This document shows positions 38,334 to 63,694 of a DNA stretch of 64,000 nt, piece after piece. Origin of the DNA: a virus. A program made the translations under genes and the position numbers. Within the stretch, counting starts at the first letter, position 1; the number at the start of each line of letters is the position of its first letter. The stretch is from the IMG/VR virus record IMGVR_UViG_3300032288_004702, positions 64,001 through 128,000 of that record. One strand, written 5' to 3'. The notes below the pieces were generated by a model, which had not been told where the DNA came from, searched no databases, and saw only the letters and a list, made by a program, of their open reading frames with translations.

Positions 38334-38653
38334 GTTTGCTCCTTTGTAAGCGGTTGGTAGGGACACCCACACAATACCACCTATGGGACAGACTTCCCAA
38401 ATCGCTTGACACCTTGTGGGGCAAGGGTTTCCGACTTATCTACTCTGTCTGTCTGCCGTGGTGCGCCCGACTTATCTACTCCTGCTGTGGGGTGGTGCGG
38501 TGGGTCTGCGCCGTGCGCCCGACTTATCTACTATCCCCCCGTGCGCCCCTCGCCCACCTCGCCCTCGGGCGTGGAGCCCCGCTGTCTTTGGGGGTCTATT
38601 CGGGCCGGGGCTTCGAGCTACTTATCTACTCTGAAAGATGAAAGGAGACTTAT

Positions 38654-39142
38654 CTACTCTTCTTCGTCTTTGGGGTCTGAGATTCGCCACAGACCTTTCT
38701 TGACCTTGATGTAAAGCGGTGATTCGCTGATGTATTTCAGCGTTGTTTGGTATGAGAAACCAGAAACCTCAACAAGTTGTTCAGTGGTGTATTCCTCGCC
38801 CTTATGTTCGTCTGCCCATGAATCAAACTGGCCGTACTTGTCCTTGCGTCGTTCGGTCTTGATAACTCCAGTATTTACTGCGTTCAGGTGCGAGAGGTAT
38901 GACTTGATAAAGGTTGTTAGTACTTCTTCGCTAACGGAGTAGTAGCGGAGCATTGCTGTCGGGTTCCCATTACACCCTTCTCTTTGCCACTTCTCCATGA
39001 CATACAGCGCACGGATAGTTTCCGCTATGCGCCATCTCTCTGCTTGGTTCGCATACCTGTCTTGTGGCTTCTTGTACTTCTTGTCAAACTCTCCGTACAG
39101 CCGTGCGTTCTCTGCGTGTACGAACTCAATAGTAAAGTTCAT
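38654..39142 (-). CDS. Hypothetical protein, C-terminal winged-helix-like
   Basis: YTTEQLVEVSGFSYQTTLKYI...KVKKGLW. Confidence 0.6.
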   Translation of the reverse strand: MNFTIEFVHAENARLYGEFDKKYKKPQDRYANQAERWRIAETIRALYVMEKWQREGCNGNPTAMLRYYSVSEEVLTTFIKSYLSHLNAVNTGVIKTERRKDKYGQFDSWADEHKGEEYTTEQLVEVSGFSYQTTLKYISESPLYIKVKKGLWRISDPKDEEE

Positions 39143-39510
39143 AACATTTCTCCTATTCCGACTTATCTACTACTCCCCCGCGTGACACTATCACCACTCG
39201 GACAGGCTTCCCAAAGTTGCAAACAAAAACTGAGAATCTGCAAAAAAGAGAAAAATCCTGCTGCCAGTAAGCCCTAGGGCTTGCCTTCCGCCACCGTCAT
39301 TCGGATTTATTTGATAAATCTCCGCCGCCAGCTCGAGCGTCCTTCTGCGAAAAAATCAAAAAATCGTCAGAGATTTAGACAACCAAGAAACCAATACCGC
39401 GTTTCAGCGGGGCTCCACCCCAGGGAAACGGACCGATGAAGAAAGGGGAGTGCTACCGCCCAACCGAACGGCAACACTCCCCGAGTAGATAAGTGAAAGG
39501 GGGGACTTAT

Positions 39511-39720
39511 CTACTCTGACCCGATGACCTCAAAGCGGTCGCCCGCTTCCTCTACAAGCCCGAGCCCGCTTCCGCTATCCCACTGGACGAACACTGTTCC
39601 CCAGTCGTCTACGAAATCCACGGTTCCTTCCTCTCCTGCTTTCAGGAGCGTGTAGGGGTCGGAGCAGTAAATGAGTCTGACTCTCTGCCCGACTAGGTGT
39701 TCGTTTCTTGCCCGTCTCAT
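39511..39720 (-). CDS. DUF4314-like protein
   Basis: GQRVRL...DPY..L..GEEGTVDFVDDWGTVFVQWDSGSGLGLV..GDRF. Confidence 0.8.
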   Translation of the reverse strand: MRRARNEHLVGQRVRLIYCSDPYTLLKAGEEGTVDFVDDWGTVFVQWDSGSGLGLVEEAGDRFEVIGSE

Positions 39721-39873
39721 GCTGGAATCTCACTTTCTGTGTTGGTGGTGATGAGAAGTATGCGAATGTCCAAGAGCAGGTCAGTCATCTCTGCCGATGA
39801 CACGATGTCCCTGCCCGAACAGTGGGCTATGGCTTTGTCCACTAAGGCGACCAGTTCCTCGTCCATGACTTAT

Positions 39874-40566
39874 CTACTCCCCTTTCTTTCGCTTGGGAGC
39901 CTTGTCAAGCATTTCCTTGTAGGCAACCGTCTTGGTGGCGAGTTGCATGTAGCCGACCGTTGCCAGCAGTGCGTCAGGCAACTTTCCGTGCGATTCAGCC
40001 TCGGGGTTCACATTCCCGACTGAACACATCGGTTCTTCGTCAAATACGGGAAGTCCGTGGTCGTCATAGCGGTACATGCTGGTGATAGACCAAACGCATG
40101 TTGCGTTCCAGTCCACGGCGGTCAAGATGATTCCTTCACGGACTGTTGAGAACGGATTCTCCTTGTAGTCCTTCTCAAAGTCACCCCTGTCGTGGTTCTG
40201 TGCTTCCTCGTCAGTCATGTCCTGCTTTGCGTAGCCCTCAACGAGAACCATGATGAAGTCAAACGGACGAATCGGGAGAGCCTTCACGACATCCTCAAAT
40301 GCGTCATAGATGTCCTCTTTGTGAATGAGGGGAATCATGGCAAGGTGGTACGGCTTTGAGAGTGAGAACTCCTGCTGGTAGTCCAAGCATGCGTCATGGT
40401 CGGGATTCGTTTCGTTGCTCTCAACGGCAACGAGAAGCAGAGGGGGACTGTCCTGCATGGGCTCGTCCTTGCACATTTCCGTCTTGGCAAAGACGGCTCG
40501 GTTGAGCAAATCTTCCATGATTTGCTTCATGTCGTGGTCTATGACCTCGTTATCTCGTGGTTTCAT
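39874..40566 (-). CDS. Hypothetical protein
   Basis: 230 aa behind the conserved promoter and RBS GAAAGGGG. Confidence 0.7.
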   Translation of the reverse strand: MKPRDNEVIDHDMKQIMEDLLNRAVFAKTEMCKDEPMQDSPPLLLVAVESNETNPDHDACLDYQQEFSLSKPYHLAMIPLIHKEDIYDAFEDVVKALPIRPFDFIMVLVEGYAKQDMTDEEAQNHDRGDFEKDYKENPFSTVREGIILTAVDWNATCVWSITSMYRYDDHGLPVFDEEPMCSVGNVNPEAESHGKLPDALLATVGYMQLATKTVAYKEMLDKAPKRKKGE

Positions 40567-40686
40567 TGGTTGCCCCTTTCAGGCGGTGTGGTTGGTACTG
40601 GAAGCATACCATGTCAGGTACAGACTTCCCAAAGTTATCTACTGACAGTAGGGGTCGGTACAAGCCCCTACACGCCAGCATGATTC

Positions 40687-40908
40687 CTACTTCTCTCCGA
40701 GCAGGTTGTTTACCGAAACTCCGAGAGCAGTGCTTACGGCGAGCAGTGTTGTCACGCTCGGTGCGAATCTTCCGTTCTCAATACGATTCACCGTCTTTCG
40801 GTCAAGCCCTGCACGGTTGGCAAGTTCCAACTGTGACCAGCCCTTCTCTGACCTGTGAACTCGTACTGATTCTGAGATTTGCTCTGTTGATGTTGCTGAT
40901 GTTCCCAT
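40687..40908 (-). CDS. XRE-family HTH protein
   Basis: GWSQLELANRAGLDRKTVNRIENGRFAPS. Confidence 0.85.
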   Translation of the reverse strand: MGTSATSTEQISESVRVHRSEKGWSQLELANRAGLDRKTVNRIENGRFAPSVTTLLAVSTALGVSVNNLLGEK

Positions 40909-40956
40909 TTGGGATTCCTTTCATTTGGGGGGTTTATGGAGTTATCTACTCCGTTT

Positions 40957-41697
40957 CTAGATGGACGAAATGAATGTGCGTGGCGTTCTCCCTTCTTTCT
41001 TGCAACGGCGAACATAGGCGAGGTGCTTCTTGTATTCCTTCATGCATGTCAGCATGTCGTCATCGCACTGCTCCATGAGATAGTTATTCCACTCGGAATG
41101 GGCTTCCCACCAAGTCTCCAATGCGTCATCGTCTGCGTCCTCTGCTTCTGCCTTGTCAGACAGTTCTCGCAACTCGGGGGTGAGGAAGTTTGGGTCACGC
41201 TCACCAGCCTCAATGACAGTTCCGTTATGAAACACAGACCAGCAAATGAAGGCTCGGGATTCTTCATCCGAGGAAACACCAAAGATGAGGTTCGGATAAA
41301 TCGCAGAAATCTTCTGAATCAGTCCGTCGCAGGGTGACCATGCTGATTCGTACCGTATGGTAATCATGTTTCCAGCAGGTGTCGGGTCGTCTATTTCGGG
41401 TCGGCATGCTCCCCACTTGCTTCCCCAAGTTTCGCAAGCGTCAAGGTAGCCGTCAAAGCCGTCCTTCTCTTTCGTGGCAAACACGCCCATAGTGGTCGTG
41501 ACTTCTTTGCCCTCTGCGTCCTTGTGAGTAGTGGTGATTTCCTTGTGACCCCTCGGGTCAAGTGGAACGAGTTGATTCAGTTCGTACTCGGGGTAGGAGC
41601 GTTCGTTGCTTTCTGCAACCGTTATGTCCTTGACGAACTTGGCGATTTCTCGCTTTGTCCCCATGACTGTCATGTAGTTGTAGCACCAGTTCGGCAT
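40957..41697 (-). CDS. YubB/DUF1281-like (ferredoxin-like fold) protein
   Basis: MPNWCYN...WGSKWG...YESAWSP; true start follows the promoter and RBS. Confidence 0.75.
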   Translation of the reverse strand: MPNWCYNYMTVMGTKREIAKFVKDITVAESNERSYPEYELNQLVPLDPRGHKEITTTHKDAEGKEVTTTMGVFATKEKDGFDGYLDACETWGSKWGACRPEIDDPTPAGNMITIRYESAWSPCDGLIQKISAIYPNLIFGVSSDEESRAFICWSVFHNGTVIEAGERDPNFLTPELRELSDKAEAEDADDDALETWWEAHSEWNNYLMEQCDDDMLTCMKEYKKHLAYVRRCKKEGRTPRTFISSI

Positions 41698-42282
41698 TTG
41701 TCTTTCCCTTTCGGCTTGGTGGCTATTCGTACTGTACCACCAGTCGGACAGACTTACATAACTTCGCTCTTCCACCACCGTCATTGAGTTATCTACTCTC
41801 GTTCGGGTCTGCGGGATTTATCTACCAGCCCCCCGACCTGCGCCTTCCCCCCAACTTATCTACTACCCCCCCGCTCCGCGCCCCCACCGCCCCTCGGGAC
41901 GGAGCCCCGGCTCGGTTGCGCAATGCGGGGCTCCAAGCTGGAACCCAACGAACGAGTGAAAGAAGTTATCTACTCTGCGATGGATGCGTAGATAAGTGAC
42001 ACGCTGGCGAATGAATGTCCAGCACCACGGCCGTACTTGATGAATCGGAGAATCCCACGGATTCCATCGGGCAGGTGCGTGAAGGCTTCGTCCGACCAGC
42101 CGTAGTCATCAAATGGAGAGTTATCTACTGGTTCAGGGGCAAACGAAACGATACGAATCTGAGGCTCGTACTCCCACGCCCAGCGAACATTGCACTCAGC
42201 ACCGACCAGGAGAAGTTCTTTGTGGAAGAACCGATGACGGAAGTACGAGATGATGAGCGAAATGTAGAGAGCCATGAGTTAT

Positions 42283-42555
42283 CTACTTCTCATTCCATTC
42301 GGCATAGACACGAATCGCCGACTTTCGCCTGTCATCGGCAGGCATGTTCTTCACGAACTGTGTAAGCGAGGAAAGAATGTCCAGAATGTCGTCCTCTGTC
42401 ATGTCGTGATTCTCCGACATGGATTCGGCAAGCGTCCCATTGGCGTATTCGTCCCAAATAATCGCCATTGCCTCTACTGCGTTCGTGGACAGCGTGAAGT
42501 AGTTGTCCCACAGCATGTCCATTACTTCTATGCGGTCTTGTTCTGTAATCACCAC
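42283..42555 (-). CDS. Hypothetical protein
   Basis: 90 aa; stop lies inside GTAGATAA. Confidence 0.55.
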   Translation of the reverse strand: MVITEQDRIEVMDMLWDNYFTLSTNAVEAMAIIWDEYANGTLAESMSENHDMTEDDILDILSSLTQFVKNMPADDRRKSAIRVYAEWNEK

Positions 42556-42788
42556 AGAACCTCTTGGTGCTTCTCGGTCGTGACTTCCTGAATCTCGGAT
42601 TCGTCAATGCCGTGCTTTATCGCAATGTGCGCTTCGCTCATGTCCTCGGCGTCCTGAATCTCATCGCCTTCTGCGTAGGCGTAGGCGGTGAATGTCTCCA
42701 CCTTCTCGTTGCGCTTCACGATGACCGTTGTGCGGTACAGCACTGGGTCTTTCATGAATGACCGAACCCTGTCGTTGATGGCTTCCAT
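42549..42788 (-). CDS. Hypothetical protein
   Basis: MEAINDRVR... Confidence 0.5.
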   Translation of the reverse strand: MEAINDRVRSFMKDPVLYRTTVIVKRNEKVETFTAYAYAEGDEIQDAEDMSEAHIAIKHGIDESEIQEVTTEKHQEVLW

Positions 42789-42945
42789 TCTCACCACTGC
42801 TCCTTCTTCCAGTTGCGCTTCTCCCGTGTACGGAGAATCCTATGCCACTTCTTGCAGGAATGCTTGCTTCCACGCCCTTTGACGAAATCGCCACAGCAAC
42901 CCCACGGGCAGGACTTGGCGTTCCTCTGTGAGTACATCATGTTGC

Positions 42946-43134
42946 TCACTTATCTACTCCTTCGCACTGACAGAAATCCGAAACATCGCACTGACACCAG
43001 TCAGCAGGCATTTCGCAATAGAAGCAATACTTCTCATTGTAGGCGTTCTTGTTTGCCGGAATCATGCCACAAGTAGGACACATGGGACGGAACATATCGT
43101 CCAGCATTTCGGAGATGCGCTTCATTTCACCCAT
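42946..43134 (-). CDS. Small Cys-rich protein
   Basis: CPTC, CFYC, CQC. Confidence 0.5.
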   Translation of the reverse strand: MGEMKRISEMLDDMFRPMCPTCGMIPANKNAYNEKYCFYCEMPADWCQCDVSDFCQCEGVDK

Positions 43135-43406
43135 CAGAAATCGTCGTCCTCTTCCTCGTCCTCGTCCCAGTCGTCCTCGTAGTCATCGTCCAACTGCTGG
43201 TCCACGGAGAACCAGCGCATGACCGTCAGCAGAAGGTTGTCGTAGTTGCCCGAGGTTGCTTCGGCGTGGAAGGCTTCCACTTCGTCACGCAGACCATTCT
43301 GCTTCATGATTCGCTGGACACGCCCGAGAATGGAGAAGGCGTTGCCGTCCTCTCCAACGAGGGGAATGTTGATGTGCGGATACTTGGGTGAGGTGATGTT
43401 GCTCAT
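43134..43406 (-). CDS. Conserved phage hypothetical protein
   Basis: LVGEDGNAFSILGRV...ATSGNYDNLL; ATG lies 6 nt after the -10 box (leaderless). Confidence 0.7.
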   Translation of the reverse strand: MSNITSPKYPHINIPLVGEDGNAFSILGRVQRIMKQNGLRDEVEAFHAEATSGNYDNLLLTVMRWFSVDQQLDDDYEDDWDEDEEEDDDF

Positions 43407-43724
43407 GCCCTCATCATACCAGCCGTGGTACAGGCTTCCCAAATCAGCCCTTTCAACCACCGTCAATGTGTTGCGAGTTATCTACTACCCCCCCCAGCGC
43501 GTTCCGATTTCCAAAGATTTCCACAACTCGGATTTATCTACTACACCCCCGACTGCGCCTCGCCCCTGTCCGCAGGGAGCCCCGGCCGTTGCAGGGTCCA
43601 GAATCAGGCGGGGCTCCACCCCCAAACGCCCCCACCTGACTGCCTCGGGGTGGGGACTTATCTACTCTGCTAGTTCTCCCCCCTCGCCCAACCGAAGCGA
43701 GAGGAGAGAGACCTAGTAGATAAG

Positions 43725-44036
43725 TCAGAGCGAGTGCCGACCGCCTCGGGTCTCGTATCGGGAGACCGCCTCGGTGATGTTCTCGCAGTAGTCGCCACTT
43801 CCGAACGACCAGCCATCGGGTCGGTCTATCGCCGTCCATACGGCGAACGGGTGACGGGGGTTGTGGGGCAGGTGGCACAGCACAGTCCACATGGCGTATG
43901 CGTCCACATCGCTCGGGCGCAGAAGCCAGCAAGCGAGAACGGTCACGGCATTGTCCATGCTGGCAGGGGTGACTACCTCTCCCACGCTCAGGGTGCGCAT
44001 GGGATAGGTGTCGGTGGGGGACTTATCTACTCCCAT
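43725..44036 (-). CDS. Hypothetical protein
   Basis: HPFAVW...GDYCENITEA. Confidence 0.5.
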   Translation of the reverse strand: MGVDKSPTDTYPMRTLSVGEVVTPASMDNAVTVLACWLLRPSDVDAYAMWTVLCHLPHNPRHPFAVWTAIDRPDGWSFGSGDYCENITEAVSRYETRGGRHSL

Positions 44037-44038
44037 GT

Positions 44039-44491
44039 TCACGCCCCCTCTCCGTTGAGCCATGCGTCAAACTCTTCATCGGTGAAAGCGGTGATGGTCG
44101 GCGGCGTGGAAAGGACTTCCTGAACAGCGAGAGCGAGAGCCTTCATCACATTCTCGTCAGCGAGCAGGGTCTTGGAGAGTGTCTCCAAGTAGGACGGGTC
44201 GTACTGCTCGGGAACATCGTGGTTCTCTCCGTCATAGTCACCTTCCTCGTTGAGTGCGCCAAGAACGACCACATCGCCCACGAGAGGGCGACCGAACATG
44301 AGGCTTGCGAGAGCGTTCGGTGCGAGTCCGATGAGGAGTCCTTCGTCATTCACATACGCAACAAGGTCATCAGTGCGAACGCAGTCAAGCCAGCCACCAC
44401 AGAGTTCGTTCAGAACGAGGTGACCGCCTTCCTCGGGAACGGTGGTGACTTCCACCTCTCCCGTGGTCTTGATGAGTAGTGCTGTTGCCAT
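44039..44491 (-). CDS. DUF3846-like protein
   Basis: CGGWLD...YVNDEGLLIGLAPN..AS....LVGDVVVLG. Confidence 0.75.
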   Translation of the reverse strand: MATALLIKTTGEVEVTTVPEEGGHLVLNELCGGWLDCVRTDDLVAYVNDEGLLIGLAPNALASLMFGRPLVGDVVVLGALNEEGDYDGENHDVPEQYDPSYLETLSKTLLADENVMKALALAVQEVLSTPPTITAFTDEEFDAWLNGEGA

Positions 44492-44815
44492 TGCTAACCC
44501 CTTTCAGGTTGTGTGTATCGGTGGCGACCACAGAGTACCACCATTAGGACAGGCTTCCCAAACTTATCTACCACTCCCCCGCGTTGCCCTCGCCTTGCGT
44601 GTGGGGTGGAGCCCCGGGGTGGCTGGGCTTCGGGCGGGGCTCCTGCCCCAGCCCTTGCCCCTCGCTCGGACTTATCTACTCTCCCCGAACACGCCTGTTC
44701 CCCCGTGCGCCTTGCGGACACTCGGGGGACAGACGGAGTAGATAAGTGTTGGGGTGGGGGACTTATCTACTCCACTCGGCTCGGGGGCTTGCGCCCCCTT
44801 GCCTTGCGTGTGGGG

Positions 44816-45217: not shown

Positions 45218-45775
45218 TTGGAACCCCTTTCGGTTTGGTTGGTGGAGAACCACACGCCGTGTTGCTTGTGGCTTGGCACAAGCATACACCCCCTCGGACA
45301 GACTTCCCAACTTCGCTTGACACTTATCTACTCCCCCTAGTTCCCCTGCCAGCCAGCCCCACAGGAGTACGGTTATCTACTACGCCCCCGTGTTGCGCCC
45401 ACAGCCCCCCTCGGGGGCGGAGCCCCGCTGGTTTGTCGGTCAAGGCCGGGGCTTCTGCCCAGAACTGCCGTCTAGCCCGAACGGGGGAGTATTAGATAAA
45501 TGGAGATTTATGTTTGGGATTACGAGGGTCGGCTGGCTCGGGTTCGGGAACTGACCTGCGAGGCGAACAGGCTGACTGCCCTTGTGCGCCGTGCCAACGA
45601 GAACACCCGTGCGAGCCTCACTCGTGGCAGTTTCAGAGTTATCTACTCCGACAGTCCTGCCCTTCCCCCGATAGAGAGTAGATAAGTCGTGGAATGGGGA
45701 AAGGGGCTGGCTCACCTTCTTGGCAAGCCAGCCCCTCTCGGGTGAAGTCCTCGGGGGGGGGTGTGAGGAAAGGGG

Positions 45776-46222: not shown

Positions 46223-46430
46223 TTGGTTTCTCTCCTACCGACAGGGTTGGTGATGTCGGCACACGCACAGTACCACTCGTTGGACAGACTTCCCAAAGTT
46301 ATCTACTACTCCCCCGCGTTCGGTTTGCCCGTGTTTGGAGTGGAGCCCCGGCTGTTCGCCGATAGTCGCGGGGCTTCTGCCCCAAAGTCGGGCTGGCGTG
46401 GCGTGGGGGGTTGGTAGATAAGTCGGGCAG

Positions 46431-47045: not shown

Positions 47046-47392
47046 GTTGTTCCCCTTTCGGAATGGTTGGTAGGACACCGTCAGCGTACCACGCTGGGGA
47101 CAGGCTTCCCAAACTTATCTACTCGGTTCTTCCACCACCGTCATTCATTTGAGAGAGTGGGCAGAGACAGCCCTTGGGAAATCCCGACTTATCTACCACG
47201 CCCCCGTGTGGTGGCTCGCCCCAGCCCCAGCCCCCGTTCGGGGTCGGAGCCCCGGCGTCTCCAAGCGAAGCGGGGCTCCTGCCCCAACTTTGGGTCAGAC
47301 GAACAGGTGTTCGGTCTGTGGGGTCGGGGACTTATCTACTCCCCCAATGGAAAGGGGGGCAGGGGGAGTAGATAAGACCCGAACGCCTAGCC

Positions 47393-48135: not shown

Positions 48136-48589
48136 TGTTGTCCCTTTCGTTTCGGTTGGTAGTGGACACCAGAACTGTACCACGCACGGCACAGGCTTCC
48201 CAACTTCGCAAGATGTGGAGAGTTATCTACTACCCCCCCGTGTTCTCGGCACAGCCAGCCAGCCCGAGTTGTGGCAAGAAGCCCCGCTTCGCTACCCGAA
48301 CCGGCCGGGGCTCCTGCCCTAAACTGCCGTGGGCAGGTGAACGGGGGAGTCGTAGATAAGTTGGCAGTTCAGCCCGATTCTCTTTGTCCCGATTCGGTGG
48401 CGGTTGGCGGTGGCGCACCACACAGCCACGCACACGCCCGACAAGCCTCTCGCATGAGACTCACGCAAGCGCACACGCACCCCGACAGCCTCGCCATGAG
48501 AGTAGATAAGTGTCGGGGGCAGGCGCACGAACACGGACTCACCCACCCTGCCCGTGCGCTAGGCAGAGTAGATAAGTCCGTGTCTTGGG

Positions 48590-49324: not shown

Positions 49325-49583
49325 GTCCAAGCCTTTCGGTTGTGTTGGTGGGACAGCCACAGAGTACCACGCACGGGACAGACTTCCCATTCTCGGACTT
49401 ATCTACTATCCCCCCGTGTTGCGCCTGCCCCCACTTGGGGTGGGAGCCCCGGCCCTGCCGAGCGCAGCGGGGCTTCTCCCCCGAAGGCAACGCCTCGGCG
49501 CACGGGGGAATGGTAGATAACTCCCATCAAAGTTTCTTTCTCGGCGTTTGACATTCGGACACGCAACGCACCTTCTACTAAGT

Positions 49584-50843: not shown

Positions 50844-51291
50844 GGTGTCCCCTTTCGTTGGTACGCCCAAACTGTACCACGCACGGGACAGGCTTCCGTG
50901 AGTTATCTACTCTGCTTGTGGGTCGTTCGGCGGTCGGAGTTATCTACTCCGTCAGGTGGGGGCTGGGGCTGTGTCAGGGCGTGGGGCTGTGCCGTAGGGC
51001 GGTCGCCGTCAGGCGCACGACTTATCTACCACGCCCCCGTTCACCGCCACACCCCGTGTGGGGGTGTGGGGGCGGAGCCCCGCAGGGTACGGCGCAGCCG
51101 GGGCTCCCGCCCCGAACTCGGCGCACCGAGCACACGGGGGATTAGTAGATAACTCTCATCAAACAGCCCTAGCCAAACACGCCACAGACACACTCTGCCT
51201 AATCGGGAAATAAATGTCCCATTCCGACACTTAGAGCACCTTCTAGTAAATGAGACCTTGTATTAGGCGTGAGACAGAAAGAGAGAAATAA

Positions 51292-52116: not shown

Positions 52117-52539
52117 TGTCTTGCCCCTTTCGGCTTGTTGGACACACAGAGAGTACCACCAACGGGTCAGGCTTCCGAAAGTTATCTACCACTCCCCCGA
52201 CACACAGCATGCTGTTGTTTGGGGCAGGAGCCCCGCTGGGGCAAGGCATTGTGCCGGGGCTCCTCAGTTCGGCTCGCCTCCTCGCGCGCGATGCCGTGAG
52301 ACTTATCTACTCTCGGTCATCGCACCCGTGGGGGCAGGCTCCCGAAATGGGAACCTCTCCGCACTCCCAGCATTGGACACGGTTCGCCCAGTCCCTCTCA
52401 CGAGCCTGCTCTGCGAGGTCGGCAGCGATGACCTGCTGACAGGGCTGGCAACGAATCGCCTGCCCATCGCACGAGCAGTCATCGGGAATCGGGAACTCTC
52501 CCGAATCATCGGGAATCGGGGTGTTGTGAATCGCTCGCA

Positions 52540-53019: not shown

Positions 53020-53301
53020 TGGTGTTTCCCCTTTCGGGCAGGTGGCTCCTGCCCACCAGAAATGTACCACTAAGAGGACAGGCTTCCGAAAGTTATCTAC
53101 TACATCCCCGTGTGGTGTGCTGTCGCGCGGGAGAAAGCCCCGCGTTGCTCGGCGAGATAGCCGGGGCTTCCGCCCAGAACTGGCGCACGGCCGTGCTGTG
53201 AACGGGGGAGTCGTAGATAAGTCGCACACTTGGGAAGGCTGTACCTATTGAGGTATGCTTCGGGTGGCCATTCGGCCGTATCCAACGAAAGGGGATAGCA
53301 A

Positions 53302-53904: not shown

Positions 53905-54127
53905 TCCGAAGGCCCACCTACTCAGAGTAGATAACTCTCGGTGGGTGGGCCGAAGGGCAGAGAAAGCCCCGCTACGCTCCCCCGAAGCTGCCGGGGCTCC
54001 TGCCCGAAAGTCGGGGGCGACATCCAGCGCACGGGGGAGTGGTAGATAAGTTCGGGATTTGGGAAGGCTGTCCGTGCTGTGGTACATTCGTGTCGCCAGC
54101 AACCACCAACCGAAAGGCAGGCACACA

Positions 54128-54556
54128 ATGTCCGAAGTCACCCCACTCCACCCGCTGACCACATCGGTCGAGCGCAACTACCCGACCGTCAAGCCCGAAA
54201 CGCTCTTGGAGCGTGGCGAGTTCCTGTCTGCCATTCTCGGTTCGGCATGGGAGTCATGGGACTGGTGGAAGGCTGTGGACTACACCGCACCGTTTGACTG
54301 GGACAACCACCCCAAGACGAACGACCGCCCATTCCTGACCATCTTGGCAGACGACCCCGATGGTGACGAGGGCGAGACCGTGAAGGTCTCTCTCACCGTG
54401 GCAGACCTCTACGAGGCATACATCTCGGTCTGCTCTGCCAACAGCGAGGACTTGGGCTACTACGAGAACTACGGAATCCACGACCTTGACTTGGACGCCA
54501 TTGAGGGCGACCACATCATTCAGTTCGCCGTGTTCGGAACGCTCATCTACGGCTGA
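54128..54556 (+). CDS. Hypothetical protein
   Basis: Ends in DAIEGDHIIQFAVFGTLIYG; follows the conserved promoter. Confidence 0.7.
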   Translation: MSEVTPLHPLTTSVERNYPTVKPETLLERGEFLSAILGSAWESWDWWKAVDYTAPFDWDNHPKTNDRPFLTILADDPDGDEGETVKVSLTVADLYEAYISVCSANSEDLGYYENYGIHDLDLDAIEGDHIIQFAVFGTLIYG

Positions 54557-54662
54557 CCGTAGGGGAGTAGATAAGTCCCCTATCGGAGTAGATAAGTTTC
54601 GGAAGTCTGTCCTACCCGTGGTACATTATGGGTAGCCACCAACCAACCGAAAGGAACGGCAC

Positions 54663-54926: not shown

Positions 54927-55145
54927 CGAGACCCCCGACTTATCTACTCCCCATGCGCCGACCGTGGTGGAGTAGATAAGTCACCCACGGGGCGAGTTCG
55001 GGGCGGGAGCCCCGGCTGGACAGCCGAGCGCAGCGGGGCTTCTTCCCGGAACTCGGCCAGAGCACACGGGGGGGTCGTAGATAAGTTGGGAAGTCTGTCC
55101 CGACCGTGGTACACTTCATGCAAGCCAACTGAAAGGGGCAACGAC

Positions 55146-55833: not shown

Positions 55834-56035
55834 ATAAGCACCCCCCGCTTATCTACTCCCCTTTGGTATACCCCGAACCAGAGTAGATAAGTGGCAAGAA
55901 GCCCCGCCTCTTTACGGGCAATGGAGCGAAGCGGGGCTTACCCCCGTGTAGGTCATTGCACGACGGGGGAGTAGTAGATAAGATTTCGCAATCGGCACAA
56001 GCCGAGCTGCCACACAGACTCAAGGAGAGAAGAAC

Positions 56036-56649: not shown

Positions 56650-56658
56650 ATAACTAGG

Positions 56659-56780: not shown

Positions 56781-56844
56781 CCCATATCGCTATTTTCTCA
56801 TATTTCCGAGAGCGCTATGGGTACGTAGTAGATAAGTCGAGTCG

Positions 56845-57045: not shown

Positions 57046-57122
57046 TTAATCCTCAAATCTCTTTGACTGCTTGATGAGTAGATAAAACAACGATAGGGCC
57101 ACAACGCCAAGTACGGTGCCGC

Positions 57123-57299
57123 TCATTTGCGCCAGTCCGTTACGAACCCGTCCATGTAGTCCTCCATCGCTTCGTCGGTTCCACAAGAGGAGCAGATTTC
57201 TGTCTTGTTATCCAGCCGCGACAGGGCCCCAATGTAGGCCCCAGGGGTGTCGTTATTGGGAATAAATCCCCCACATCGGGGGCATACCGGCTTGCTCAT
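57123..57299 (-). CDS. Small Cys-rich phage protein
   Basis: CPRC..GALSRLDNKTEICSSCGTDEA; RBS GGAGAG. Confidence 0.6.
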   Translation of the reverse strand: MSKPVCPRCGGFIPNNDTPGAYIGALSRLDNKTEICSSCGTDEAMEDYMDGFVTDWRK

Positions 57300-57410
57300 T
57301 TTCTCTCCAAAATGTCTAGTAGTTGGTACTCCCGACACGATAGCCCATGACGGGGAAATTTGCAACAGTTTGTTTTGCCGGCCCTATGTGTGGTTAGTAT
57401 GTGCCTAGGA

Positions 57411-57469
57411 CCGGTGGGGCTCGCGCAACCTCTCTCCTTTCGGTACATCCCCAGTGCGAGCCTCGCCGG
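57411..57469 (+). ncRNA. Hairpin with an anti-Shine-Dalgarno-like loop
   Basis: 16-bp stem with three G-U pairs on the + strand; loop AACCTCTCTCCTTTCGGTACATCCCCA. Confidence 0.45.
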
Positions 57470-57489
57470 TTTCTACTATTCTGTAGACG

Positions 57490-59406
57490 ATGAGGTTGTA
57501 CCTAGACAAGAACGAGATAGTGCTGGACTTCCCGTATGACCAGCAACAAGTTGCCGAACTCAAACAAATAAGGGGCGCACGATGGGACAAGAGCTCAAAG
57601 CTATGGCGTGTACCAGTAACGTCCCTCGCCGAGGCGCGAGAGTTCGCCATCAAGCATGACTTCGACGTGACAATAGACGTGCTGACGTTCAGTGCGCCTC
57701 GCCCTCGAACCGGAACAGCAAGCGTATCCCTAGACGATGGGATGATTGCCATCCGTGTCCCGTACGAAAGAGTAATCGTCAAAGCGGTGAAGCAGATACC
57801 GGCCGTATCGTGGAACGCGAAGAAGCACTACTGGCAAGCGCCAACATCTTCCGTACTAAATGCAATCGAGTGGGCAGAGAAGTTCGACGTCCCCGTGGAG
57901 CCCGATGTGGCGGCTTTATCCGACGAAGTGACCACGCGAATGAACGAGTTCATCGAGGCGTCTCGCTCGGTAGACGCAGAAGTAGACATCCCTACATTGC
58001 AGGGAGAGTTGCTTCCATACCAGCGCGCAGGGGTTATCTACGCATCAAACGCTCGCAGGACATTCATCGCGGATGACATGGGTCTAGGAAAGACGCTCCA
58101 ATCTATCGCAACGCTCGAGTACGTTATGGATTCGTATCCGGCGGTAGTTGTATGTCCGCCAAGCCTTGTTCTCAACTGGGTGTCTGAATGGAACCGGTGG
58201 CTACCGAACCGACGCGTCGTCCCCGTTACGAATAGAAAAGACTTTCCGGAGCGCGGTTCTTACGATGTTGTCGTCGTTGGATACAGCAACATTTCGCATT
58301 GGGAAAAGCGCCTCGCCGGCCATCGCGCATACGTGTTCGACGAGAGCCACTACGCAAAGACTCCAACGGCGCAGCGCACAAAGGCGGCTGTGAAGATGGC
58401 AAAGTCGGCGCACAAAGACGGACTAGTACTGTGTCTCACTGGGACACCAGTTACAAACCGCCCGAACGAGTACGCGTCTCAATTGGAGATTCTCGGTCGC
58501 CTGAAAGACTTTGGCGGGCTGTGGGGTTTCTACCGGCGCTACTGTGCTGCCTATCAAGACAACTTCGGGCAGTGGAACATCAGCGGCCACTCGCACCTAG
58601 ACGAACTCAATGAGCGTTTACGTGGAACGTGCTACATCAGACGCACCAAAGACCAAGTTCTCTCTGAACTGCCACCAGTGATTCACAGCAAGCTTCTTGT
58701 CGAGGGTGCATCGTCAGTGATGAAAGAATACGCAAAGGCGGAAAAGGACATCTTGTTGTACATTGCCGAGCGTGCGCGGCAGTTGGCGCTCGAGCAGGGT
58801 AAGCCATCGTATGGTGCAGCCATCGCCGCGATGATTAGGGCAGAGGCTAACGAACACCTTGTTCGCTTGTCCGTACTCAGGAAGATTGCCGCCAAAGCAA
58901 AGATGGACGTAGCAGAGGAGTGGATAAATGCTCGAATCGAGAACGGCAAGAAAGTTGTTGTCGCTGCTCACCATCGTGACATCGTTGATGAACTCGCTCG
59001 CAAATACGGCAATCTTCGCATTCAGGGTGGGATGGCGGTCGAGGAAGTGGAGGAGAACAAGCGCCTCTTCCAAACTAAGAGCGTTGAGGATGCGCCTGTT
59101 ATGGTGCTCTCAATACAGGCGGCGAAGACGGGACACACTCTGACTGCATCAGAGGAATGTCTTTTCCTAGAACTCCCGTGGACACCCGCCGACGTAGACC
59201 AAACATACAGTCGGCTTCATAGGCTTGGACAAAAGGGAAGCGTGACGGCGACATACATGCTTACATCGGGGACGATAGACGAAGAAATCTATGACATCAT
59301 CGAGAAGAAGCGTTCGGTTGTCGGTGCGGCAGTCGATGGAGGGGAAGTAGATAACTCCGACCTATCTACGCAGATGATTCTGAGCCTGCTCGACAAACTC
59401 AGTTAG
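57490..59406 (+). CDS. SNF2-family helicase with two HARP-like N-terminal domains
   Basis: DDMGLGKT, DESH, LTGTP, QTYSRLHRLGQ; repeated 'KQI.GA.W....K.W..P' modules. Confidence 0.9.
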   Translation: MRLYLDKNEIVLDFPYDQQQVAELKQIRGARWDKSSKLWRVPVTSLAEAREFAIKHDFDVTIDVLTFSAPRPRTGTASVSLDDGMIAIRVPYERVIVKAVKQIPAVSWNAKKHYWQAPTSSVLNAIEWAEKFDVPVEPDVAALSDEVTTRMNEFIEASRSVDAEVDIPTLQGELLPYQRAGVIYASNARRTFIADDMGLGKTLQSIATLEYVMDSYPAVVVCPPSLVLNWVSEWNRWLPNRRVVPVTNRKDFPERGSYDVVVVGYSNISHWEKRLAGHRAYVFDESHYAKTPTAQRTKAAVKMAKSAHKDGLVLCLTGTPVTNRPNEYASQLEILGRLKDFGGLWGFYRRYCAAYQDNFGQWNISGHSHLDELNERLRGTCYIRRTKDQVLSELPPVIHSKLLVEGASSVMKEYAKAEKDILLYIAERARQLALEQGKPSYGAAIAAMIRAEANEHLVRLSVLRKIAAKAKMDVAEEWINARIENGKKVVVAAHHRDIVDELARKYGNLRIQGGMAVEEVEENKRLFQTKSVEDAPVMVLSIQAAKTGHTLTASEECLFLELPWTPADVDQTYSRLHRLGQKGSVTATYMLTSGTIDEEIYDIIEKKRSVVGAAVDGGEVDNSDLSTQMILSLLDKLS

Positions 59407-59855
59407 TCGCTCTTTGCTTCTTCGCCTTCGGTGTCGATGCCGGAAATAATTTCCTGAGCAATCAACTTTGCATACTTGCGACGAAGTCTCCAAATCTTTC
59501 GATTCATCTCTACAAGCTCTTTGCTCATTCGCGCTTTGATAATCGCGTCGTCATCGAACACGCCATGAATGTTAAACAATGCGTCGTGTAGTTCAGTGTC
59601 CTCTATGAGAATGTCAGAAATCCAGCCAGCACGGTTGTCGATGGCCATCATCAACTCGCACATTCCCTCCACACCGAATTCGTCATAGAGACGGTTTACA
59701 ACAATGGTGCAAAAGTGTGACCGGTACAAGCGCTTAGCCTTCTGTGATTGCGACATGAACTCAGAGAGCCACACCGCGAGTTCGCCACTAGAAAAGTCAC
59801 TAACATCATCTGAGGCGGAGTCAATAAAGTCGTCATCATCGCCGTCTTCTCTCAT
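59403..59855 (-). CDS. Hypothetical protein
   Basis: 150 aa with RBS GGGAGG. Confidence 0.6.
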   Translation of the reverse strand: MREDGDDDDFIDSASDDVSDFSSGELAVWLSEFMSQSQKAKRLYRSHFCTIVVNRLYDEFGVEGMCELMMAIDNRAGWISDILIEDTELHDALFNIHGVFDDDAIIKARMSKELVEMNRKIWRLRRKYAKLIAQEIISGIDTEGEEAKSD

Positions 59856-59905
59856 GACGCCTCCCCGTAACTAGAACTGTACACAAATGATAACAGCGTC
59901 AATCG

Positions 59906-60931
59906 TTACACCGCTGACAAGAGATAATCCTGGGCTTTCATTTTCGCCCGAGTCACCCATGAGTTTGCACTCATTGACGCCAGTGCTCGCTCTGTCTGCG
60001 TTGCATCACGATAATGGTCGAGGTATTCACCCACAGCGTTTACGAGTGACCAAGCGTTGTAGCCATAGTTCTTTGCGTTGTTGTCATTTACGTAAATCGC
60101 ACGAACTAAGCCCATGACATCATCTCGGTTTTTTTTCTGTCTCTCCGTTGCATCTTTCGATGTTGGGAACACAGCGTCAAGTGTCTTGTCGAGAATCTGC
60201 GATGATGCTGGAACGTTTATTGACAGCAATCGCTCTGCCGTTGCTGAGAACTCTCTCGCCCACTCTGTCGAGATGTTGAGTACTTGATTCGCTTGCTCGA
60301 TTGCTCTGTCGGCATTTCGGGTGTGTCGTGCAGTGAATACTCGCTTCGCTGATGAAACGCCAGCAATCACTGTGTTTTTGCACACCGCACGAATGCTGGT
60401 ATTCGCAAATGTAATCGCCGTCTTCCCGTCATGTCCGTTATGCACGAGTAGATAACGCTCGATGGAGTCATTCACTCCGTTCGGGTCGATGATGAGTGCG
60501 CCCATGTCAATAGACGCAAAGAACTCACGCCCACCGTGCAGAACTCCACAAGTATCCACGACTGCGTCTCCGCCGGAAGCTCCAACAATGTCGAGTGCGT
60601 AGTCAAGACATTCACGATTTTGTTGCACCACGTAGCGCGTGCCGACAGTGGCGAGACCATCGAATGAACCATCTGCGTTCACCCGTACTGTCGCCCGTGA
60701 GTCGGGGACAAGAATCGGAGTTCCATCAGGCTGTCGTATCGGCTCGCCGTTATCGTCACATACCGCAACACGCGTTGTCACCACGTCGAAATCAGCCTGC
60801 GCCGCTTGGAGCATTGCCTCCGCCGTTTGTAGCCCTTTCATTGGTTTTCCGAGTCTGTGCCACGGAATCTCTCGGTCTGCGTACGCCATGCGCACTGTGC
60901 CGTCGTCGTTGATTTCTAGTTGATGAGCCAT
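59906..60931 (-). CDS. DUF932-family protein
   Basis: PWHRLG, RYVVQQN, NGHDG, IRAVCKNT, RHT, NAVGEYLDH. Confidence 0.85.
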   Translation of the reverse strand: MAHQLEINDDGTVRMAYADREIPWHRLGKPMKGLQTAEAMLQAAQADFDVVTTRVAVCDDNGEPIRQPDGTPILVPDSRATVRVNADGSFDGLATVGTRYVVQQNRECLDYALDIVGASGGDAVVDTCGVLHGGREFFASIDMGALIIDPNGVNDSIERYLLVHNGHDGKTAITFANTSIRAVCKNTVIAGVSSAKRVFTARHTRNADRAIEQANQVLNISTEWAREFSATAERLLSINVPASSQILDKTLDAVFPTSKDATERQKKNRDDVMGLVRAIYVNDNNAKNYGYNAWSLVNAVGEYLDHYRDATQTERALASMSANSWVTRAKMKAQDYLLSAV

Positions 60932-61143
60932 GATGTCTCCGTCTCTCTATCGTGTAGATAAATCTATCTGAAAGGTGCGCCTCGTAGGGGAAGGGAAATA
61001 ATGCGGGGCTCCCGCAGGGAGGGGACACCCCCACCCCACGCAACGGGGATGTAGTAGATAAGTCTCATCTTTCGGAAGCCTGACCCACCCGTGGTACGCT
61101 GGCGGTGTCGGGGGGGACGGTCTCCCCCGACGAAAGGGGAGCC

Positions 61144-61701
61144 ATGCTCAGGATTGAGACGGAGTGCGAGTTGAGGGACGGGCGCGTCCTGTACGAGGGC
61201 GAGGTCGTCCTCACGGTGGACAGCGTGGACGGCGACTCCGTCACGGGCTGGTTCCGCCCCGACTGGTGGGACCGCAACACCGCCCGTGCGCTGGTGCTGG
61301 ACACCCCGTGCAAGTACGAGGGCAAGCCCGTGCCGTGCGACGAGAACGGCGAGTGGACGAACACGCTCGCCTGCGAGTGCGCCACCTGCCTCGTGGACGA
61401 GTTCCCGTACGACGACTGGGGCTGGCACGGTGCTGGCGCAGAGGTCACCCTGACCCTCCCCAAGACGGAGGCGAAGAAGGGCGACCGCATCGTCGTCGGA
61501 GTCCTGCTCACCCGAGAGAGGCTCACGGGTGGGTACGACCGCCACGGCATCACCAGCGGACTCTCGTCCACGACCTACTGCGGAAGCGTCTCGTGGGACG
61601 AGTGGCAGGCGTTGGAGGCGTGCGAGACGACCCGAGGCTGGCTGGCGTACGACGCACAGATTCGGGAGGACGAGAACCCGACCGAACACAGGGACTGGTG
61701 A
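61144..61701 (+). CDS. Hypothetical protein
   Basis: Follows the conserved promoter and CGAAAGGGG. Confidence 0.65.
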   Translation: MLRIETECELRDGRVLYEGEVVLTVDSVDGDSVTGWFRPDWWDRNTARALVLDTPCKYEGKPVPCDENGEWTNTLACECATCLVDEFPYDDWGWHGAGAEVTLTLPKTEAKKGDRIVVGVLLTRERLTGGYDRHGITSGLSSTTYCGSVSWDEWQALEACETTRGWLAYDAQIREDENPTEHRDW

Positions 61702-61989
61702 CGGGGAGAGTAGATAACCCCGAACGGAGGGACCGCACACCCACCCCACAGGCGCACACCCACACCCACGCCACACGCCCGAACACCCACGGCAACCCAC
61801 GCCACACAGGCAGAGGGCAAACCGTGCGAAGCACGGTGCGCCAGCCCAACGAGCGAAGCGAGGCGGGAGAAAGCGAGGAAACGAGCGGGGCTCCACCGGA
61901 GCAAGGGCGCACTGGCGCATGGCACACGGGGTGGTAGTAGATAAGTCGGCAGGTTGGGAAGGCTGTCCCCACGGTGGTACAGTTCAGGC

Positions 61990-63195
61990 ATGAACGAAAT
62001 CTCGTCCGCCTCACTTGCCTTTGACCTCCACACACAGTTGGTGGAGTACCGCGCCAGTCACCCGACGGCCGACCGACTCCTACACCACGGCTACTACCGC
62101 GCCTTTGTCGGCGGAGAAACCACCGACACCGTGTCACGCGCAACGCTGGAAGTGGCGATGAAGGAAAGCCACACTTACCACGAGGTCGCGCGAACGCTTG
62201 ACGACGCGATTCTCACCCGTGCTGACACCGTGTTCCTCACCGACGACCTGCGCGAGTTGGTCAAGACGGCAGAGGCCACAATGCCCGACGAGGTTCTGTT
62301 TGACACGGACATTTACACCCCGTGCGGATTCATCGTGATGGAAACGCCACTGCGATACGATGTTCTGTCGCGCACGAAGGCAAGCGAGTTTGAGAGCCTG
62401 CTCGCTCTCGTTCACAAGCACGGCGGAACCGTGACAGGGACGCGCACACATGAAACGCCCGACCAGTTCGGTGATTACATCGGCGCGGAACACTGGGAGG
62501 TTCGCGCGTTCGCTTGGGCTGATGTAGATAAGGTCAAGCCCGAAGCACTGGCCGACATTGAGAAGCGATTCGGCACGAAGTCTCCCGAGTACGCGTTCGC
62601 ACGGAGCGTGATGCTCGCCCCCAACGGGGACAAGGGACTGTATGTCCGCGTGTTCGGCTCCATGACGGCCACAAGTGTGGACGGAGTGACCATTGAGGTT
62701 CCTGCCATCTCGCGCGAGTTGCGACTGATGGACATCTACGCATTCTTCTACGGGGAGGACGGACTGCGCGAGGAGACGGCACTGTACGAGCCGACAGGAC
62801 GCGTGACGGACGAGATGCTCAAAGCGTCGTGGGAACGCTCACGCTCCATTCGTCGTTTCCTCGTCGCTCTGTTCCGCTTGATGGAGGAGTATGTGGAAGT
62901 AGATAAGTCTCCTCTCCATCGCGCACACGGCCGTCGTGCCTCCCGTGTTGGTCGCGGTGGCGACTTGCGGAATGTCACGATTCTCTCACTGCGTCGCGCG
63001 CTTGGCGATGACGAAGATGGAGGCGGTGTCGGCCACAAGGTCACGCTCGCCCATCTCGTCCGTGGCCACTGGCGCAACCAGTGGTATCCATCGCAAAGGC
63101 AACACCGCGCGAAGTGGATACGCGCACACCGTCGCGGTGGGAACGCTGGCGATGTGGTGACCGCCCGTCCGCGAATCATCAAGGTAGACCGATAG
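61990..63195 (+). CDS. Hypothetical protein with a C-terminal VRGHWR motif (leaderless)
   Basis: HLVRGHWRNQWYPS...WIRAHRRG; ATG lies 6 nt after the -10 box. Confidence 0.7.
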   Translation: MNEISSASLAFDLHTQLVEYRASHPTADRLLHHGYYRAFVGGETTDTVSRATLEVAMKESHTYHEVARTLDDAILTRADTVFLTDDLRELVKTAEATMPDEVLFDTDIYTPCGFIVMETPLRYDVLSRTKASEFESLLALVHKHGGTVTGTRTHETPDQFGDYIGAEHWEVRAFAWADVDKVKPEALADIEKRFGTKSPEYAFARSVMLAPNGDKGLYVRVFGSMTATSVDGVTIEVPAISRELRLMDIYAFFYGEDGLREETALYEPTGRVTDEMLKASWERSRSIRRFLVALFRLMEEYVEVDKSPLHRAHGRRASRVGRGGDLRNVTILSLRRALGDDEDGGGVGHKVTLAHLVRGHWRNQWYPSQRQHRAKWIRAHRRGGNAGDVVTARPRIIKVDR

Positions 63196-63263
63196 AGCAC
63201 GCGACACCTTATCTACTCTCACCCGTGGCCAGTGAGTGAGAGTAGATAAGTGTCAGAGCGTCG

Positions 63264-63455
63264 CTAGGCGCGCTTGGCGACGATGGAGTATTCCACCGTG
63301 TCCTCTCCGATGTTCGGAGCAGGGAAGTAGAGCGCGAGGCCGAGGTACTTCTCTGCGTCGCGCTTGGTAGCGAACACCTCGTTGAGAACGGTTCGGCTGA
63401 TACGGCCGTCCGTGAGACGCGCGGTGCGCTTGATGATGAATGTTTGTGATGCCAC
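63264..63455 (-). CDS. Small hypothetical protein
   Basis: GTG follows CGAAAGGGG and the conserved promoter. Confidence 0.55.
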   Translation of the reverse strand: MASQTFIIKRTARLTDGRISRTVLNEVFATKRDAEKYLGLALYFPAPNIGEDTVEYSIVAKRA

Positions 63456-63694
63456 TGTGAACCCCTTTCGTTCGGCAACACCAAGACAGTACCACACATC
63501 GGACAGACTTCCCAAAGTGGTGGTGCGCTCCGGTGGGAGCCCCGCCCCTGACGCCCTCACTTCGTTCGGTTGTCCTCGCGCTGAACGAGGAGAGTCGCGC
63601 GCAACAGTGAGAGTAGATAACGGCAGAGACACCGTGCCGACACTTATCTACTCTCATAGACGGTGCCGACACGGTGCGTGCGCCGTGTACCGAA

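Follow-up and report, generated by a model that had tools for sequence, protein, structure and literature searches.

Why should a phage place a separate copy of the same promoter, and usually of the same leader, in front of each of some two dozen sets of small and unrelated genes, and are those genes exchanged as cassettes? The question is raised by a 64,000-nucleotide stretch of viral DNA (‘the window’ in what follows), which represents bases 64,001-128,000 of the complete, 156,276-bp IMG/VR record IMGVR_UViG_3300032288_004702 (a sequence with direct terminal repeats), and in which an early-gene cassette array extends over positions 38,371-63,545. The array is built of at least some 24 promoter-leader-gene units (22 of the promoters lie inside the window and two just past its end), and a ‘word’ of about 13 nucleotides recurs within it and on either side. 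Comparison with related genomes reveals that whole cassettes have been permuted, flipped, gained and lost, and the repeated DNA at the junctions points to homologous recombination as the probable agent.

The virus itself appears to be a tailed phage of freshwater Actinomycetota, because it carries a WhiB gene together with ribbon-helix-helix and helix-turn-helix (HTH) regulators, and because its relatives have been binned with Actinomycetota metagenome-assembled genomes (MAGs). Those relatives are short contigs, mostly from such MAG bins, and no signs of integration were seen. A megablast search of the INPHARED phage genomes with 12 kb of the window returned no match.

Cassette turnover among related genomes

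A pattern scan combined with a protein-based scan recovered more than 120 related contigs (122 or more), and in these the array is designed alike. The window’s genome was compared with six complete genomes (G004-G009) and with a 32.5-kb assembled composite (R1); the closest complete relative is G004, whose proteins are mostly 70-98% identical to their counterparts. Homologs of the first open reading frame (ORF) were found for 20 of the 24 cassettes in G004, 16 in G005, 14 in R1, 13 in G006, 10 in G007, and 9 each in G008 and G009. The flanks of the array are collinear among the relatives, whereas the repeat-dense part at 42-56 kb is not, and turnover is concentrated there.

The rearrangements involve order, orientation and content. 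Three cassettes (named, like the rest, for their promoters; Table 1) stand in the order P45307-P46293-P47109 in the window’s genome, G004, G005 and G006, and in the order P47109-P45307-P46293 in R1, G007 and G008. Cassettes P53233 (which encodes a ParA-like ATPase), P54062 and P53087 are found on the opposite arm of the array in some relatives, always inverted, and therefore stay co-oriented with their new arm and retain their promoter. The inverted segment in G004 (54,042-54,624 in the window) spans the DNA from the upstream word of one promoter to the next promoter. Gain or loss of cassettes can be followed to the base in near-identical contigs: L023 differs from L024 by one whole extra unit (promoter, leader, 75-codon ORF, word hairpin, palindrome and upstream element), flanked by a duplicated word and promoter of about 46 bp, and L054 differs from L050 and L046 by one extra unit flanked by about 87 bp of repeated scaffold.

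A first-pass annotation of the window, made from its letters and predicted ORFs, had proposed a modular and possibly shufflable platform with one promoter per cassette, and had named alignment of related genomes as the check. The proposal is borne out, because the relatives are not fully syntenic and, in two near-identical pairs, the genomes differ by exactly one cassette with repeated promoter or scaffold DNA at both ends. Near-identical relatives also differ outside the array, by indels without scaffold repeats. Two of these (L040:15110-15557 against L039, and L055:15806-16748 against L045) are insertions of membrane-protein genes directly after ATGACGGTGGTGGA, with about 5 bp of microhomology, an indel mode unlike that of the array.

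The same annotation did not recognise the arrangement from described phages; its logic is, however, that of the promoter-early stem-loop (‘PeSL’) cassettes of the T4-type phages RB49 and phi1 (Arbiol et al. 2010, PMC2839356; Comeau et al. 2014, PMC4122927), where a difference of a single ORF, RB49 ORF192 against phi1, has been attributed to recombination between PeSLs (PMC2839356). In both systems a host-type early promoter, a GC-rich stem-loop, a Shine-Dalgarno sequence and a start codon are repeated dozens of times and concentrated in ORFan-rich ‘hyperplastic’ regions (here, only 9-20 of the 24 cassettes are common to each relative), and the L023/L024 and L054/L050 and L046 comparisons share the RB49 ORF192/phi1 topology, with one ORF between two repeat copies in one genome and a single repeat copy in the other. 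The differences are that the phage family and its host are unrelated here (actinobacterial, WhiB-encoding), that the hairpins stand apart from the promoter, 50-180 bp upstream, instead of lying inside it, and have no U-tracts, and that a long leader, a nested inverted repeat and a lineage-specific 13-nt word are common to the units. The array is a variant of the PeSL principle, probably working by repeat-mediated recombination, in the sense of a functional class and not of a homology family.

A further likeness is to the host-takeover clusters of other large phages. The terminal-redundancy module of SPO1 and the early regions of T4 consist of many short early operons, with strong host-sigma promoters and ribosome-binding sites, that encode small proteins with mostly unknown functions. 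The array resembles these clusters, but its units are far more identical to one another, and the 13-nt word and a candidate small RNA directed against the leader are added.

Anatomy of the repeated unit

The promoters and leaders are highly uniform. Aligned units give the consensus ACnCGGGGGnGTAGTAGATAAGTTTGGGAAGnCTGTCC-N6-GTGGTACnnT followed by GGTGTCC..ACCAACC..AAGG..ATG, or, in a fuller alignment, ACnCGGGGGnGTAGTAGATAAGT-TTGGGAAGnCTGTCC-N6-GTGGTACnnT followed by GGTGTCC..ACCAACC..(G)AAAGG(GG)..ATG. Within this consensus are a -35 element (TTGGGA), a conserved spacer (AAGYCTGTCC) and an extended -10 element (TGGTACnnT), with 18 bp from TTGGGA to TGGTACnnT; the -35, spacer and extended -10 columns are invariant across 24 promoter copies. 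By sequence, these promoters belong to the host sigma-A type with an extended -10. Hexamers of the form TAnnnT and G-rich Shine-Dalgarno sequences are typical of actinobacteria, and a scan with the E. coli consensus, which is unsuited to actinobacterial signals, misses the array promoters. A profile search found no phage sigma region 2 (Sigma70_r2); a search for a T7-like RNA polymerase (PF00940) also gave no match, which is uninformative because its positive control was silent too. Distant lineages of the family each have a stereotyped early promoter of their own. In two such relatives (L073 and L087) it reads GGTTGT-N17-GATAAT or CATAAT with an ATG 5-8 nt later, and their early mRNAs are probably mostly leaderless.

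Most units share a common 5' leader that contains CCUACCAACC and, after it, the Shine-Dalgarno part GAAAGGGG, of which there are 19 copies in the window against 2.4 expected. In four units (P43439, P48892, P61957 and P65654) the ATG lies 6-7 nt after the -10, and these units are probably leaderless. Each unit carries one to four small genes. The cargo consists mostly of ORFans, most products having no Pfam or PHROG family; the recognisable exceptions are an AAA_5 ATPase, a Cro/C1-type HTH protein (HTH_3), DUF3846, DUF6011, an Api92-like domain, the ParA-like ATPase, a MarR-like winged helix and an H1-like protein.

Between the units lie GC-rich palindromes, 15 in number and with a dG of about -20 kcal/mol, and at least 16 hairpins formed by pairs of words, and the GC-rich hairpins probably insulate each unit from the next. 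The palindromes (GGAGCCCCG-N16-25-CGGGGCTCC) are confined to 38.5-55.9 kb, each at a distance of 50-180 bp upstream from a promoter, and the rest of the genome has none. Around many of them the element CGGGGG-n-GTAGATAA is repeated in inverse orientation, creating a nested inverted repeat of 110-140 bp whose outer pair, TTATCTAC-n-CTCCCCCGT and ACGGGGGAG-n-GTAGATAA, encloses the AGCCCCG..CGGGGCT palindrome; the CGGGG-N2-8-GTAGATAA element occurs 26 times in the window against 0 expected. The clearest symmetric block (53.09-53.23 kb) is the divergent promoter pair 53087/53233, from which a minus-strand and a plus-strand arm diverge. The array runs on past the end of the window to about 65.7 kb, and is broken at 56-61 kb by conserved genes, including those for a SNF2 helicase and a DUF932 protein.

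The recurring unit described by the first-pass annotation is therefore confirmed, every listed element being present far above chance. Its extent was drawn too narrowly for the word, which occupies 27.7-67.4 kb and is actually about 13 nt long, and the shared leader that it described holds outside the four leaderless cassettes. The features are collected in Table 1. The early array has a G+C content of 55-60% (window 36,000-64,000) and the structural half one of 43-50% (1-26,000); the AT-rich word forms islands within the GC-rich early DNA.

Table 1. Positions of the array, its promoters and palindromes, the word zone and the candidate small RNA in the window
Feature	Position	Strand	Remarks
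Early-gene cassette array	38371-63545	both	Minus-strand arm 38.4-53.1 kb, plus-strand arm 53.2-63.2 kb
Word zone (GGAGTAGATAAGTC, core GTAGATAA)	27681-64000	both	
Candidate small RNA	31159-31268	+	Two predicted hairpins; outside the array span
Promoter P38397	38371-38400	-	-35 TTGGGA, spacer AAGTCTGTCC, extended -10; would drive AAA_5 ATPase and 522-aa gene
Promoter P39211	39185-39214	-	Word lies downstream of -10
Promoter P40629	40603-40632	-	
Promoter P41757	41731-41760	-	Variant -35; cassette holds Cro/C1-type HTH gene 40687-40908
Promoter P43439	43413-43442	-	Probably leaderless
Promoter P44558	44532-44561	-	
Promoter P45307	45281-45310	-	
Promoter P46293	46267-46296	-	
Promoter P47109	47083-47112	-	
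Promoter P48200	48174-48203	-	
Promoter P48892	48866-48895	-	Probably leaderless
Promoter P49387	49361-49390	-	
Promoter P50897	50871-50900	-	
Promoter P52176	52150-52179	-	Cassette missing from closest complete relative G004
Promoter P53087	53061-53090	-	Left member of divergent pair
Promoter P53233	53230-53259	+	Right member of divergent pair; ParA-like cassette, inverted on other arm in R1 and G005
Promoter P54062	54059-54088	+	Cassette 54042-54624, inverted on other arm in G004
Promoter P54601	54598-54627	+	Winged-helix gene; cassette in 0/7 relatives compared
Promoter P55089	55086-55115	+	
Promoter P61074	61071-61100	+	Cassette in 0/7 relatives compared
Promoter P61957	61954-61983	+	Probably leaderless
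Promoter P63512	63486-63515	-	
Inner palindrome	38576-38611		GCCCCG-N24-CGGGGC
Inner palindrome	41904-41931		N16
Inner palindrome	43579-43614		N24
Inner palindrome	44611-44640		N18
Inner palindrome	45422-45452		N19
Inner palindrome	46345-46374		N18
Inner palindrome	47249-47276		N16
Inner palindrome	48281-48311		N19
Inner palindrome	49446-49473		N16
Inner palindrome	51077-51104		N16
Inner palindrome	52230-52260		N19
Inner palindrome	53137-53167		N19; centre of divergent promoter pair
Inner palindrome	53966-53997		N20
Inner palindrome	55009-55039		N19
Inner palindrome	55901-55937		N25

A lineage-specific word and a candidate small RNA

The core of the word, GTAGATAA, is present in 111 copies in the window against 0.97 expected; of 119 copies in the whole genome, 117 fall within about 27.6-67.4 kb (2.9 per kb there and 0.017 elsewhere). 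The full word of about 13 nt is GGAGTAGATAAGTC, written (G)GAGTAGATAAGTC in full. It stands directly upstream of the -35 in 26 copies; others lie at gene joints and often supply, with their TAG or TAA, the stop codon of the upstream ORF. The word is also found inside a few ORFs (in the Val-Asp-Lys frame), as inverted pairs with 12-bp stems, and, at about 90 places, alone and without the rest of the nested-repeat block. Its orientation follows the genes: 60 minus and 19 plus copies in the minus-gene arm, 23 plus and 3 minus in the plus-gene arm, and 8 minus and 2 plus in the minus-gene block beyond. Among the anti-oriented copies, 16 of 24 have a sense partner no more than 60 nt away, with which they make the two arms of a hairpin. 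The predicted RNA context of the word is not uniform (32 copies paired, 36 in loops and 49 mixed). A role as a start-codon signal was rejected, since few copies have the ATG of a long ORF 0-4 nt after them (16 of 119 in the window’s genome, 2-3 of about 78 in G006 and G007).

Several further observations concern the word and its surroundings. At 35,950-35,975 (+) an extended -10-like sequence (TGGTGGTACACA) is followed at once by the word (GAGTAGATAAGTC), which may overlap a transcription start there, and the arrangement is kept in G004 with that genome’s own spelling. A GCATGC-rich block at 35,400-35,470 (TGCATGCATGCATGACGCATGC...GAGCATGCCGTGAGCATGCC), conserved in G004 and flanked by oppositely oriented word copies, could represent an origin or a cluster of operators. 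Family-wide, including in lineages without the 13-nt word, there is also another oriented word, (T)TGACGGTGGTGGAAG(A), which usually stands just upstream of a promoter (33,210-33,228, 41,770-41,790, 43,450-43,470, 47,125-47,145 and others in the window; also L039, L061, L071 and L082) and sometimes reads ATG-ACG-GTG-GTG-GAA (MTVVE) at the start of an ORF.

The spelling of the word differs by lineage (GGTGTAGGTAAGTC, AGGTAGATAAGTC, AATAGATAAGTC, ACTAGATAAGT, CTAATAGATAACT, AAGGATAATG and others). Five complete genomes each contain 78-119 copies of their own spelling, with the other spellings at background, and no foreign spellings were seen as a trace of cassette transfer between lineages. In G005 the word sits exactly on the -35, and the distant relatives G008 and G009 have stereotyped promoters only and no 13-nt word. 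At 35 or more orthologous places, including sites inside ORFs, GGAGTAGATAAGTC in the window’s genome corresponds to GGTGTAGGTAAGTC in G004, which differs at two word positions. This concerted respelling implies a trans-acting, lineage-specific reader, as short tracts without flanking homology cannot be made uniform by gene conversion.

Candidates for that reader were sought in two ways. Co-variation with the word was not displayed by any of the aligned proteins: WhiB, an Arc-like protein (114 aa), a ribbon-helix-helix protein (54 aa), an HA-domain and HTH protein (124 aa), an HTH_3 protein (73 aa), two zinc-ribbon proteins, a replication-initiator-like protein (124 aa), two basic proteins (82 and 165 aa) and a winged-helix-like protein (162 aa); a relative-rate screen of the G004 branch likewise yielded no candidate, only structural or unclear proteins standing out. 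A phyletic screen (presence in all five word-bearing genomes and absence from the two word-less ones) was passed by four proteins, namely a thioredoxin, a 228-aa protein beside the major capsid gene, an acidic 130-aa protein of no known family and an array protein of 230 aa, encoded at 39,874-40,566 (-). The last, also acidic, is the sole array protein whose presence tracks the word; its structural model is confident (pLDDT 88), and its matches are weak and generic (Foldseek E no better than 1.5e-3 against a cut-off of 0.001; VIA Z 5.8 or less, to pilin-like folds).

A search of the literature for the word sequence itself found nothing relevant, but a known class of sites invites comparison: the operators and ‘stoperators’ of Cluster A mycobacteriophages (L5 gp71; PMC9283540, PMC6550527). 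These, too, are asymmetric 13-mers present in many copies, at the -35 of a promoter and, between genes, in short gaps where they overlap stop and start codons, with an orientation that follows transcription, a consensus that varies by lineage, and actinobacterial hosts. Unlike the stoperators (about 20-36 over a 50-kb genome), the words number 78-119 in about 40 kb of early genes, a copy number three to four times higher, and form many inverted pairs; no gp71-like repressor was recognised and no integrase found.

A second possible layer of control is a candidate small RNA of two hairpins, preceded by an extended -10 (TGG-TAAGTT, in TGGTAAGTT). One loop, CCCCCUUUCG, is complementary to CGAAAGGGG in the leader, and the other, GGGUUGGUAGG, to CCUACCAACC. 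The element is kept in four genomes (the window’s, G004, R1 and G005), among which the loops do not vary and five stem pairs show compensatory changes; a tail complementary to the word is not conserved in the relatives. Predicted pairing with the two loops is stronger for array leaders than for 156 other 5' regions (means of -12.1 against -8.4 and -15.6 against -10.8 kcal/mol; P=2e-4 and 3e-7), and both pairing thresholds are passed by 11 of 24 array leaders and 6 of the 156 other regions. Such pairing would explain why the leader is conserved. A search of the whole genome with Rfam found only 12 tRNAs and no ribozyme or other known RNA, and a trans-acting ribozyme was rejected as a candidate, the hammerhead core pattern giving 2 matches in the window against 0.9 by chance. 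Ten of the 12 tRNA genes are clustered at 137.8-141.3 kb of the genome (L150:9788-13331), with single ones elsewhere, including window 28,906-28,980.

Competing explanations and implications

The explanation that appears probable is that of an early, ORFan-rich, hyperplastic region of autonomous units, shuffled by repeat-mediated homologous recombination and overlain by the word and the small RNA. Each unit would comprise a strong sigma-A promoter, usually the common leader, and its small genes, with the GC-rich hairpins between units; the control DNA (100-200 bp, repeated about 24 times) would allow homologous recombination to delete, insert and permute whole cassettes, and recombination between the divergent arms would invert them, each cassette travelling with its own promoter. 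The direct repeats of 46-87 bp at the junctions are what homologous recombination leaves, and the process would be the PeSL mechanism of T4-type phages acting in an unrelated phage family. The word GGAGTAGATAAGTC would serve as the site of a lineage-specific, phage-encoded factor, at or beside the -35, where genes meet, within a few genes and in hairpin arms; that factor would most likely be a DNA-binding operator or ‘roadblock’ protein that shuts the early region down in the manner of the stoperator system. The two-hairpin small RNA, finally, would pair with the shared leader and repress translation of the array.

Several results weigh against parts of this explanation. Breakpoints of homology between the window’s genome and G004 fall at cassette joints, and in 12 of 30 cases a word copy is no more than 12 bp away, where 3.4 would be expected at random (P<1e-4); because a control limited to intergenic DNA raises the expectation to 7.5, making the enrichment marginal (P=0.05), the word itself need not be the crossover point. 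Phage recombinases of the RecT and YqaJ types are absent, and the hairpins lack U-tracts, with canonical terminator patterns not enriched in an E. coli-type scan. The DNA-reading segments of the most obvious regulators (WhiB at 28,472-28,822 (+) and the products of 29,166-29,674 (-), 34,632-35,006 (+) and 40,687-40,908 (-, the Cro/C1-type HTH protein), a set that includes two ribbon-helix-helix proteins and an HA-domain protein with a sigma-r4-like HTH) are invariant across lineages with different words, and these five regulators presumably read family-wide sites rather than the lineage-specific word. No reader of the word was found, and the 230-aa array protein is acidic and has no informative fold match.

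How far, then, might dedicated elements account for the array? It shares with integrons, to which the first-pass annotation had compared it, rows of unrelated small genes, structured repeats between them, and the gain, loss and reordering of whole cassettes, and the comparison could be extended by supposing that the word and nested inverted repeats are recombination sites (attC-like, possibly folded as single-stranded hairpins) cut by a dedicated, lineage-specific recombinase or nuclease. The placement of the word at cassette and gene joints and in inverted pairs, its proximity to breakpoints, and a respelling that implies a co-evolving reader are all in keeping with such a system. However, Phage_integrase (PF00589) is absent from the window’s genome and four complete relatives (control positive in 14 of 14 genomes), Resolvase from the window’s own genome (control positive), and the Y1 HUH transposase (Y1_Tnp, PF01797) from five genomes (control positive), which extends to the whole genome the earlier remark that no integrase or recombinase is visible in the window. 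Because no tyrosine or serine recombinase or HUH transposase was found in the genomes searched, the integron analogy appears to hold for the outcome and not for the mechanism: an IntI-type recombinase is missing, each cassette has its own promoter in place of a common Pc, and the indels are bounded by long direct repeats, which appear to be promoters and leaders rather than attC sites or a short core. Since word copies also lie within ORFs, and their enrichment at breakpoints is marginal against the intergenic control, a dedicated recombinase is very improbable. It is more improbable still that the nested blocks are selfish elements that spread through the early region and carry promoters incidentally, after the fashion of miniature inverted-repeat transposable elements (MITEs) or of REPINs (hairpins built from repetitive extragenic palindromic, or REP, sequences). 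The nested repeats around the palindrome, and a spelling as lineage-specific as that of REP/RAYT pairs, would suit this idea, but the RAYT/Y1 transposase is the family already noted as absent, no target-site duplications were seen, the clearest symmetric block is merely a divergent promoter pair, and most words stand alone.

The opposite alternative, that the scaffold is purely regulatory (a promoter, leader and insulator that are simply reused) and that the rearrangements are illegitimate or gene-boundary events unrelated to the repeats, has in its favor that breakpoints at gene boundaries are expected anyway, as the intergenic control illustrates, and that the array-external indels in L040 and L055 arose with microhomology and no scaffold repeats. 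It is nonetheless unlikely: both array indels in near-identical genomes are exact repeat-to-repeat units with duplicated flanks, cassettes that change arms are always inverted with promoter and orientation kept, and turnover is focused on the repeat-dense DNA between collinear flanks. For the word alone, an action in RNA has a small but real chance of being correct. On that account it would be a signal for cleavage, processing or translational repression of early transcripts, read by an endoribonuclease, an RNA-binding protein or an antisense RNA, and would resemble the sites of T4 RegB or RegA or of T7 RNase III; its co-orientation with transcription, the role of most antisense copies as partners in 12-bp RNA hairpins, the many copies between a stop codon or Shine-Dalgarno sequence and a start codon, and its limitation to early genes are consistent with this. 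Against it, the 26 copies upstream of a -35 lie outside the transcript of the adjoining promoter, the word of G005 is itself the -35, the structural context of the copies is mixed, Rfam recognises nothing beyond tRNAs, and the anti-word tail of the small RNA is not kept. A tentative and rather doubtful extension of the explanation favored here may be offered, namely that a lineage-specific phage factor of no recognisable family silences the whole early region through 80-120 oriented sites, in the manner of a stoperator roadblock but in a large phage where no integrase was found, and that the respelling from GAGTAGATAAG to GTGTAGGTAAG, at all sites together, also forms a barrier of regulatory incompatibility between sister phages that exchange cassettes, because the same word marks every cassette joint.

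The cassette principle was already known from the PeSL systems; what remains new is the respelled 13-nt word and the leader-matched candidate small RNA. With the array, promoter-cassette shuffling of the PeSL kind, known from T4-like coliphages, is found also among large freshwater actinophages, a family that is abundant and uncultured, and the base-level junctions illustrate how ORFan genes change hands together with the signals for their expression. That sister lineages spell a 13-nt word differently at about 100 sites amounts to a clean natural experiment in the co-evolution of a regulator and its sites, and the reader of that word, if found, could prove to be an early-gene shut-off or immunity factor of a new type. 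The small RNA, in turn, suggests that a single RNA may control about 20 early genes together.

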